Assembly: GCF_003334385.1 (NCBI RefSeq)
Contig: NZ_QOWN01000004.1
Source of the DNA: Escherichia coli
Lineage (GTDB): Bacteria; Pseudomonadota; Gammaproteobacteria; Enterobacterales; Enterobacteriaceae
Length of the DNA: 64,000 nucleotides
Direction: 5' to 3' (one strand)
Both the position numbers and the translations under genes were made by a program. This document shows positions 56,188 to 56,511 of this stretch, piece after piece (position 1 is the first letter of the stretch; every line of letters begins with the position of its first letter). The notes below the pieces were generated by a model that was given only the letters and a program-made list of their open reading frames with translations, was not told the DNA's origin and made no database searches.

Positions 56188-56511
56188 GGTGTTTCCTTCT
56201 TATGATATGCAGGTGATCCGACCACTTGGGTCTGAGTTTTAATCATATGTGCTATTTATCGAATTTCCCGCAAGTGTGATGCCAGTTTGCGGTCAAGCGC
56301 ACAAATCATATGAAAAATGAATGCTTATACTGAAGACCGCGCTTCGGTAAAAAGATAATTCTGAATAATTGTAACCTTTAGGTAAAAAAAGTTATACGCG
56401 GTGGAAACATTGCCCGGATAGTCTATAGTCACTAAGCATTAAAATTTGCGCCTCATAATAGTTGGGCCGATTGTGGCACCGCACAGGCGTAATACTCAGC
56501 AGGAGATAACA

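Follow-up and report, generated by a model that had tools for sequence, protein, structure and literature searches.

The closest described system is the control region of ytfK itself. By binding SpoT, YtfK shifts it towards (p)ppGpp synthesis, and the YtfK/SpoT ratio is decisive for this switch (PMC6917717). Using lacZ fusions, Meyer et al. (2021; PMC8600398) found that ytfK has two independent promoters. In addition, EMSA and deletion analysis showed that cAMP-CRP binds the sequence TGTGATGCCAGTTTGC with a KD of about 25 nM, and two Pho boxes were placed upstream of the sigma-S-like promoter P1 (PMC8600398). PhoB-dependent induction of ytfK has been confirmed, no PhoB binding was seen by ChIP-seq or ChIP-chip, and this control was called indirect (PMC10294691). 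In Salmonella, phosphorylated RcsB bound the RcsB box TTAGATAATTCTGA, which lies 50 nt upstream of the ytfK start, in EMSA (PMC7913699). Furthermore, the rpoS dependence of ytfK is known from the literature (PMC8600398, PMC5437024). The multi-input control of ytfK is already published. For the divergent neighbour ytfJ, a passage of PMC4447067 citing Dartigalongue 2001 gives a transcription start 24 nt before the ATG, at about 56211 in the coordinates used here, and attributes it to sigma-E.

Here, we studied the ytfJ-ytfK gap in a stretch of 64,000 nucleotides from Escherichia coli (NCBI RefSeq assembly GCF_003334385.1, contig NZ_QOWN01000004.1), which is called the window below. According to the list of open reading frames, the gap extends from 56188 to 56511 and is exactly 324 bp long; 56187 is the last position of the minus-strand ytfJ ATG, and the ATG of ytfK, on the plus strand, occupies 56512-56514. 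The G+C content is 41.0% in the gap vs 51.7% in the whole window. The original prediction, made from the letters of the sequence, described a 324-bp AT-rich gap between divergent genes, and the ORF boundaries and the base composition confirmed this. The AGGAG ribosome-binding site that it assigned to ytfK was found as well, 6 nt ahead of the ATG. It also called the gap unusually long. Among 17 divergent gene pairs in K-12 and O157 stretches, the gaps measured 84-371 bp (median 189 bp) and 324 bp was the second longest, so the gap is long but not extreme. Furthermore, the claim that ytfK is stress-induced was correct, and the claim that there is room for several regulator sites was right and already published (two promoters, CRP, Pho boxes, RcsB and the ytfJ promoter). 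The two independent ytfK promoters in the literature differ from the simpler picture of one simple promoter followed by a long leader.

The gap is 100% identical, at every base, to positions 4439263-4439586 of K-12 MG1655, and thus the K-12 literature applies directly. Of 5426 complete E. coli genomes, 5418 contain it at a coverage of at least 80%, almost always with an identity of at least 99%. No annotated feature lies inside the gap in the complete E. coli genomes, including K-12 and O157.

To describe conservation at larger distances, about 87 Enterobacterales genomes were compared in total. A scan for YtfK with one genome per species gave 80 Enterobacteriaceae loci. ytfJ was divergent from ytfK in all 79 Enterobacteriaceae loci with enough flanking sequence, and the gap measured 318-336 bp in each of them. 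In seven genomes of Pectobacteriaceae, Yersiniaceae and Erwiniaceae, the gap was 315-346 bp long; the gene order paeA-ytfK / ytfJ-cysQ was kept in all seven, and cpdB came next in six. In the Enterobacteriaceae alignment of the gap, the mean majority-base frequency was 0.81 and 41% of the columns were at least 95% conserved, vs frequencies of 0.63 (ytfJ) and 0.80 (ytfK) at the four-fold degenerate sites of the same genomes. It is the conservation of the gap, rather than its length, that exceeds chance. This conservation takes the form of discrete blocks, which coincide with the promoter and regulator elements listed in Table 1. We propose that the gap is probably a compact control region shared by the two divergent genes, in which ytfK would receive several inputs and ytfJ would be under a predicted operator of the fatty-acid regulator FadR.

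Table 1. Positions of genes, conserved blocks and known or predicted control elements in and around the ytfJ-ytfK gap
Feature	Position	Strand	Details
ytfJ coding sequence	55630-56187	-	185-aa exported protein, PF09695; identical gene annotated in K-12 and O157
ytfJ Shine-Dalgarno	56192-56198	-	AAGGAAA; block TTTCCTT, conservation 0.93; 6 nt from ATG
FadR-like block	56209-56229		Conservation 0.98; best-conserved block around the predicted operator
Predicted FadR operator AAGTGGTCGGATCACCT	56211-56227	-	Matrix match, inside the most conserved block
Block TTTAATCATATGTGCTA	56238-56254		Conservation 0.92
Block TTTCCCGCAA	56264-56273		Conservation 0.95
cAMP-CRP site of ytfK P2	56275-56290	+	TGTGATGCCAGTTTGC, exact sequence located
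Near-invariant core TGCCAGTTTGCG	56280-56291		Conservation 0.99
Block CGCACAAA	56298-56305		Approximate P2 -35 zone; conservation 0.93
Probable P2 -10 element TTATACT	56325-56331	+	Conserved block inside the P2-active fragment; start expected near 56338
RcsB-like and Pho-like block	56348-56374		Conserved
RcsB-box-like AAAGATAATTCTGA	56351-56364	+	7/8 specified positions of TNRGAN4TCYNA
Pho-box-like repeat TTGTAAC-CTTT-AGGTAAA	56369-56386	+	11-bp period; may be one of the two Pho boxes already published
A+T-rich block	56379-56398		Conserved
A+T-rich -10-like stretch	56387-56398	+	TTATAC or TTATGC in 63/80 sequences
Putative ytfK P1 core promoter	56402-56429	+	TGGAAA, 16 nt, TATAGT; C at -13 (CTATAGT)
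CTATAGT, putative P1 -10	56423-56429	+	Conserved block
Leader blocks of ytfK	56441-56451 and 56464-56483		Conserved
Predicted two-tier leader hairpin	56447-56491	+	56447-53/56485-91 and 56463-69/56474-81; RNAalifold, 23 genera
ytfK Shine-Dalgarno block	56499-56508	+	AGGAG at 56501-56505
ytfK coding sequence	56512-56718	+	68 aa, DUF1107, activator of SpoT

The published P2 fragment maps to approximately 56170-56400 and the P1 fragment to 56332-56587. TTATACT is the probable -10 element of the distal promoter P2. It occurs in 71 of the 80 Enterobacteriaceae sequences, is invariant in the seven genomes of other families, and is the most conserved promoter element across Enterobacterales. Meanwhile, the CRP site agrees with TGTGA-N6-TCACA at 5/5 positions in the left half and 2/5 in the right half. 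The TGTGA half was present in only 4 of the 80 sequences, all from Escherichia, and the TTTGC half in 74. The right part of the CRP site is overlapped by TGCCAGTTTGCG. Since TGTGA is confined to Escherichia and TGCCAGTTTGCG is near-invariant, CRP alone leaves the conservation of TGCCAGTTTGCG unexplained. The reverse complement of the TGCCAGTTTGCG core, CTGGCAT, agrees with a Pho half-site at 6 of 7 positions. Furthermore, the best-conserved blocks, at 56238-54, 56264-73, 56280-91 and 56298-305, are left unexplained by the CRP and Pho sites published so far, and they suggest that further regulators of ytfK are probably still to be found. By eye, no convincing match to the marbox, Fur, ArgR, PurR, CpxR or IclR motifs was seen in the gap.

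At the proximal promoter, CTATAGT was found in 76 of the 80 sequences and matches the sigma-S type of -10 element, which is the kind of RpoS-dependent motif that the original prediction suggested searching for. The P1 start would lie near 56436. No entry for ytfK or ytfJ was found in the supplementary data of the Cappable-seq, Rend-seq, Shigella and ROSE studies, and thus we infer the P1 and P2 starts and the -10 assignments from the sequence. In addition, ungapped alignment puts the Salmonella ytfK start, taken from SalCom as quoted in a passage of PMC7913699, at about 56401, which suggests a third ytfK start. The RcsB-box-like sequence AAAGATAATTCTGA of E. coli corresponds to the Salmonella RcsB box TTAGATAATTCTGA.

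The best match to a full 18-mer Pho box in the gap is weak (12/18, minus strand, 56279-96). Pho boxes at ytfK were reportedly described by Baek and Lee in 2006 and by Yoshida in 2011. The Pho-like half-site at 56369-75, which is weak in E. coli, reads TTGTAAC, TTGTCAT or CTGTAAT among the genera, that is, it varies towards the CTGTCAT consensus. This pattern would argue for a real site of the OmpR/PhoB family despite the negative ChIP results. A sigma-54-like sequence, TGGCAC-N5-AGGC (56475-87), was rejected on inspection by eye: its start would fall within the Shine-Dalgarno sequence, and TGGTAC stands at this place in many genera.

The leader of ytfK appears to carry a conserved hairpin, a conclusion that we hold with modest confidence. 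In the alignment of 23 genera, in which the GCAGGAG of the Shine-Dalgarno sequence is invariant, 94.7% of the hairpin cells were paired, vs at most 56% when the partners were slid. Double substitutions were seen in 4 of the 14 pairs, and the covariation score was reached by 0 of 500 column shuffles, although such a result can also arise among related sequences that have no real structure. The folding energy of the single E. coli leader sequence was no better than that of shuffled sequences (z = -0.79), and no Rfam family corresponds to the hairpin. It would lie about 11 nt from the putative 5' end of the P1 transcript and 8 nt ahead of the Shine-Dalgarno sequence. In Salmonella, sigma-S strongly alters ytfK RNA, not the protein (PMC5437024), and RIL-seq chimeras between the sRNA BhsB and ytfK were reported (PMC8175672). 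The discordance between RNA and protein, together with the BhsB chimeras, points to a post-transcriptional layer at ytfK. The position of the hairpin near the P1 5' end and the Shine-Dalgarno sequence fits a role in stability or translation as well as the Salmonella discordance. The hairpin could explain how sigma-S affects ytfK RNA without a change of protein.

The original prediction also left room for a small transcript, and this part was not borne out, with no Rfam match, no conserved internal terminator and no conserved ORF. We regard it as highly improbable that a small RNA or small protein, for instance the product of the MPVCG... frame from 56279, has gone unannotated in the gap. This frame (ATG CCA GTT TGC GG...) begins inside an invariant block, has 13 codons with the same TGA in E. 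coli and Salmonella, and is longer in other genera. However, its stop codon varies, the frame is shifted by a 1-nt insertion in Franconibacter, a Shine-Dalgarno sequence is absent, and the conservation comes in solid blocks split by 5-6 variable bases with no period-3 pattern. For an RNA, the gap has a single terminator-like hairpin, at 56215-56232, but this hairpin coincides with the FadR-like dyad and has a 3' arm and a T-run that differ from genus to genus; we rejected it as a terminator. A search of Rfam over 55000-58000 with an E-value of at most 10 gave only two chance snoRNA matches, and no such product is annotated in K-12 or O157. From these comparisons, the gap is judged to contain neither a small RNA nor a small protein.

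Several other candidates in the gap were rejected. An in-frame TTG extension of ytfK (56446) and minus-strand frames of 30 and 35 codons are not conserved. The block TTTCCCGCAA and 56287-56293 make up an inverted repeat. This repeat, CCCGCAA-N13-TTGCGGG (56267-93), was discarded as a hairpin of RNA or DNA, the changes in it being mostly uncompensated (for example, CCCGCAA/TTGCGTG in Klebsiella and CCCGTGA in E. albertii).

On the other side of the gap, the AlphaFold model of YtfJ has a pLDDT of 92.3, and its Foldseek matches are TlpA, ResA, CcmG and peroxiredoxins, that is, periplasmic thioredoxin-fold proteins. No match of YtfJ to solved structures was found by sequence. There is no cysteine outside the signal peptide, and the mature protein is cysteine-free. 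YtfJ is predicted to have a thioredoxin-like fold without catalytic cysteines. Lacking cysteine in its mature form, it should not be a classical redox enzyme.

The site that lies over the ytfJ promoter was evaluated with a matrix of known FadR operators. Promoter regions of ten known FadR targets were taken from K-12 and searched with the palindromic core alone, and the search recovered 11 known operators, namely those of fabB, fadI, fadL (two), fadB, fadE, fadD, fabA, fadH, iclR and fadM. A symmetric matrix was made from these 11 K-12 sites. The FadR-like site AAGTGGTCGGATCACCT is a 17-bp dyad, read on the ytfJ strand from 56227 down to 56211; in K-12 it corresponds to 4439286-4439302. It scored 19.0 bits with the 11-site matrix, ranked 5 of 167,864 positions and stood above 7 of the 11 known sites; in addition, this score exceeds every leave-one-out score of the known sites except that of fadI. 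Above 11.9 bits, the 167,864 positions contained only known sites and AAGTGGTCGGATCACCT, and the best other position in these 168 kb reached 10.9 bits. By chance, a 19.0-bit match has a probability of 1.3e-7 per position, which corresponds to about 0.6 matches per genome and 4e-5 per gap of this size. Furthermore, AAGTGGTCGGATCACCT fits the FadR consensus ANCTGGTCNGACCTNNT, and it has GTGGTCGGAT in common with the fadH operator and TCGGATCA in common with the iclR operator. In the right half-site, GATCA stands in place of GACCA.

The FadR-like site is centred 32 nt ahead of the ytfJ ATG, at about -8 from the reported ytfJ start. Among the known targets, the distance from operator centre to ATG is 30-38 nt for the repressed genes fadE, fadB, fadI and fadH, and 66-78 nt for the activated genes fabA, fabB and iclR. 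A site at about -8 from the reported start is in the position of a repressor. We tentatively propose that the ytfJ promoter, within the shared control region, is covered by a FadR operator which several Enterobacterales families have retained, a proposal about which we are somewhat more doubtful than confident.

The FadR-like site was recognized in 78 of the 80 Enterobacteriaceae sequences, and the block around it is invariant in 74. The few variants of AAGTGGTCGGATCACCT in this family change only the central N or shift towards the consensus (ATCTGGTCCGATCACCT). Near-invariance within Enterobacteriaceae alone cannot tell FadR from another factor or from a core-promoter constraint. Outside this family, Pantoea (AACTGGTCTGATCACTT) and Erwinia (AACTGATCAGACCACTT) have sites of 21.7 bits at the same position relative to ytfJ. 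These sites differ from that of E. coli at 4-5 positions and yet are better matches to FadR, and such divergence with a higher score is expected of a FadR site, not of a fixed promoter element. The distance between the site and the ytfJ ATG stays at 20-32 nt across Enterobacteriaceae and Erwiniaceae. Pectobacterium, Ewingella and Musicola have sites of 12.5-16.2 bits that lie upstream of ytfJ at 69-88 nt; those of Pectobacterium and Ewingella have 15.8-16.2 bits and lie elsewhere in the gap. In Serratia, no FadR-like site above 11 bits was found in the gap, Gibbsiella has only a 9.6-bit match, and Tenebrionibacter has none. In addition, no FadR-like site was found at distant YtfJ homologues located away from ytfK (a second E. 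coli paralogue, a metagenomic homologue and one from Actinobacillus).

The same block could have been kept for another reason. It is unlikely, in our opinion, but worth serious attention that the block at 56209-56229 is the core promoter of ytfJ (sigma-E -10 element, discriminator and start) or the site of another regulator, and that its likeness to FadR operators is coincidental. The -10 element of rpoH P3 is GGTCTGAT, and GGTCGGAT in the block resembles it. The block includes the reported ytfJ start (about 56211), for which sigma-E was named, and invariance in 74 of the 80 sequences fits any sequence-specific constraint. However, an acceptable sigma-E -35 element at the right spacing is missing: the best match to GGAACTT-N15/16-TCNAA agrees at 7-8 of the 11 specified positions and lies elsewhere in the gap, so that no convincing sigma-E promoter was found. 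The main text of the Rhodius 2006 paper on the sigma-E regulon does not mention ytfJ. Furthermore, a core-promoter constraint does not predict that Pantoea and Erwinia change 4-5 positions while the FadR match rises, and a coincidental likeness has to contend with the small probability, given above, of a 19-bit match by chance in the gap. As another candidate for the ytfJ promoter, TATGAT (56242-56247, minus strand, within TTTAATCATATGTGCTA) is a possible -10 element.

Alternatively, the FadR-like site might serve mainly ytfK and not ytfJ, so that the fatty-acid status would be coupled directly to the YtfK-SpoT switch. The accumulation of (p)ppGpp through SpoT in fatty-acid starvation needs YtfK (PMC8600398, PMC6917717), and in Pectobacterium, Ewingella and Musicola the site is deeper in the gap, about 70 bp upstream of the P2 start. 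In E. coli, however, the putative P2 start lies about 119 bp downstream of the centre of the site, and the ytfK ATG is 293 bp away from this centre. FadR activates fabA and fabB from sites near -40, unlike the distance at ytfK, and the constant spacing of 20-32 nt from the ytfJ ATG in Enterobacteriaceae and Erwiniaceae also speaks against ytfK as the main target. We consider this reading quite improbable, and ytfJ is retained below as the putative target of FadR.

A full-text literature search, RegulonDB and RegPrecise lying beyond its scope, revealed no link of FadR to ytfJ or ytfK, and the name ytfJ was absent from four papers on FadR and the fad regulon among the matches listed. We found no earlier description of the FadR operator, and its novelty is uncertain.

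In the model that we propose, the distal promoter P2 would use the -10 element TTATACT (56325-31), helped in E. coli by cAMP-CRP at 56275-90. The proximal promoter P1 would be of the sigma-S type, with the Pho-box-like and RcsB-box-like sequences upstream of it (56351-86). Carbon, phosphate, stationary-phase and envelope signals would in this way set the level of YtfK, which would turn SpoT towards (p)ppGpp synthesis. All ytfK transcripts would share the leader hairpin at 56447-91, which most likely would affect mRNA stability or translation. Meanwhile, FadR bound to 56211-27, over the -10 and start region of ytfJ, would repress ytfJ, and long-chain acyl-CoA would release FadR from this site, as it does at fadE, fadI, fadB and fadH.

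The level of YtfK matters because the YtfK/SpoT ratio decides on (p)ppGpp synthesis under phosphate, fatty-acid or carbon starvation. What is new here is the predicted FadR operator over the ytfJ promoter, the conserved blocks beyond the published sites and the predicted conserved leader hairpin. If the FadR prediction is true, YtfJ, a periplasmic thioredoxin-fold protein, would join the fatty-acid (fad) regulon as a new member, and the distal promoter of ytfK, the gene whose product turns on SpoT in fatty-acid starvation, would have an acyl-CoA sensor about 100 bp away. The repression of ytfJ by FadR is a testable prediction, and it would give a first functional handle on this conserved protein.

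Compared with the region studied by Meyer et al. (2021), the gap is the same DNA; the published CRP sequence, fusion end-points and EMSA primers can all be placed in the window. The ytfK side resembles the stress promoters of osmB and osmC, which also have tandem promoters, an upstream RcsB box and a -10 element of the sigma-S type carrying C at -13. Unlike osmB and osmC, however, the ytfK region adds CRP and Pho inputs and the predicted leader hairpin. This predicted hairpin is similar to the 5'-proximal stabilizing stem-loops of the ompA type in lying near the 5' end and upstream of the ribosome-binding site, and it differs from them in that its function is predicted and its covariation support is modest. 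On the ytfJ side, the predicted operator shares with the repressed operators of fadE, fadI, fadB and fadH the 17-bp dyad with a TGGTC-N-GA(C/T)CA core, a score within the known range and the same distance to the start codon. It also overlaps the reported start of the downstream gene, as the repressed fad operators do, and its GATCA half-site matches the iclR and fabA/fabB sites. Unlike the genes behind the fad operators, ytfJ is not a gene of beta-oxidation or transport.

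The predicted FadR-like site upstream of ytfJ was lost or degraded in only 2 of the 80 Enterobacteriaceae ytfK loci (one genome per species), namely those of Tenebrionibacter intestinalis (L074, −0.9 bits) and Intestinirhabdus alba (L038, 8.7 bits). In addition, we found three conserved motifs of the CGCAA/TTGCG type around the cAMP-CRP site of the ytfK P2 promoter, and these motifs were retained without compensatory change. They look like protein-binding sites. The heptamer CTGGCAT in the same part of the gap differed from a Pho half-site by one mismatch.

Features at the ytfJ-ytfK locus (window coordinates, except the paralogue)
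Feature	Position	Strand
cysQ-ytfJ junction (ytfJ stop, 55630; cysQ stop, 55640)	55630-55640	
ytfJ	55630-56187	-
FadR-like site (ytfJ-proximal part of gap)	56211-56227	-
Stretch holding the three motifs	56264-56305	
CGCAA/TTGCG-type motif 1	56267-73	
CRP site	56275-56290	+
CTGGCAT (as reverse complement)	56279-85	
CGCAA/TTGCG-type motif 2	56286-92	
CGCAA/TTGCG-type motif 3	56298-302	
ytfK	56512-56718	+
Hairpin	56741-56765	
Second YtfJ paralogue	L091 2501-3061	

The YtfK protein was 94-100% identical across about 25 genera. Furthermore, the four-fold degenerate sites of ytfK showed unusually high conservation (0.80 vs 0.63 in ytfJ), which hints that the ytfK mRNA itself is constrained. Downstream, a hairpin with a perfect 11-bp stem separates the convergent ytfK and paeA (ytfL) genes; it received a terminator score on both strands and is probably a bidirectional terminator.

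On the other side of the locus, ytfI is absent from the window strain, where cysQ and ytfJ overlap convergently at their stop codons, whereas a 939-bp ytfI gene sits between them in K-12 and O157. Of 5426 complete E. coli genomes, 3795 have the junction without ytfI in intact form, and other genera have the same arrangement. Thus, ytfI appears to have been inserted in a minority of lineages.

A second YtfJ paralogue, with 55% identity, is present in some E. coli strains; in the E. coli locus L091 it lies in a polysaccharide-synthesis/LptF-LptG-like gene cluster. A FadR-like site was looked for upstream of this copy in L091, and none was found.

A high-confidence prediction gives YtfJ a thioredoxin-like fold of the TlpA/ResA/CcmG type, and the protein has no cysteines beyond the signal peptide. 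TlpA/ResA/CcmG folds include a CXXC motif in the N-terminal part, whereas YtfJ has a conserved HIAGRxSAK motif in its N-terminal part, putatively at the same place.
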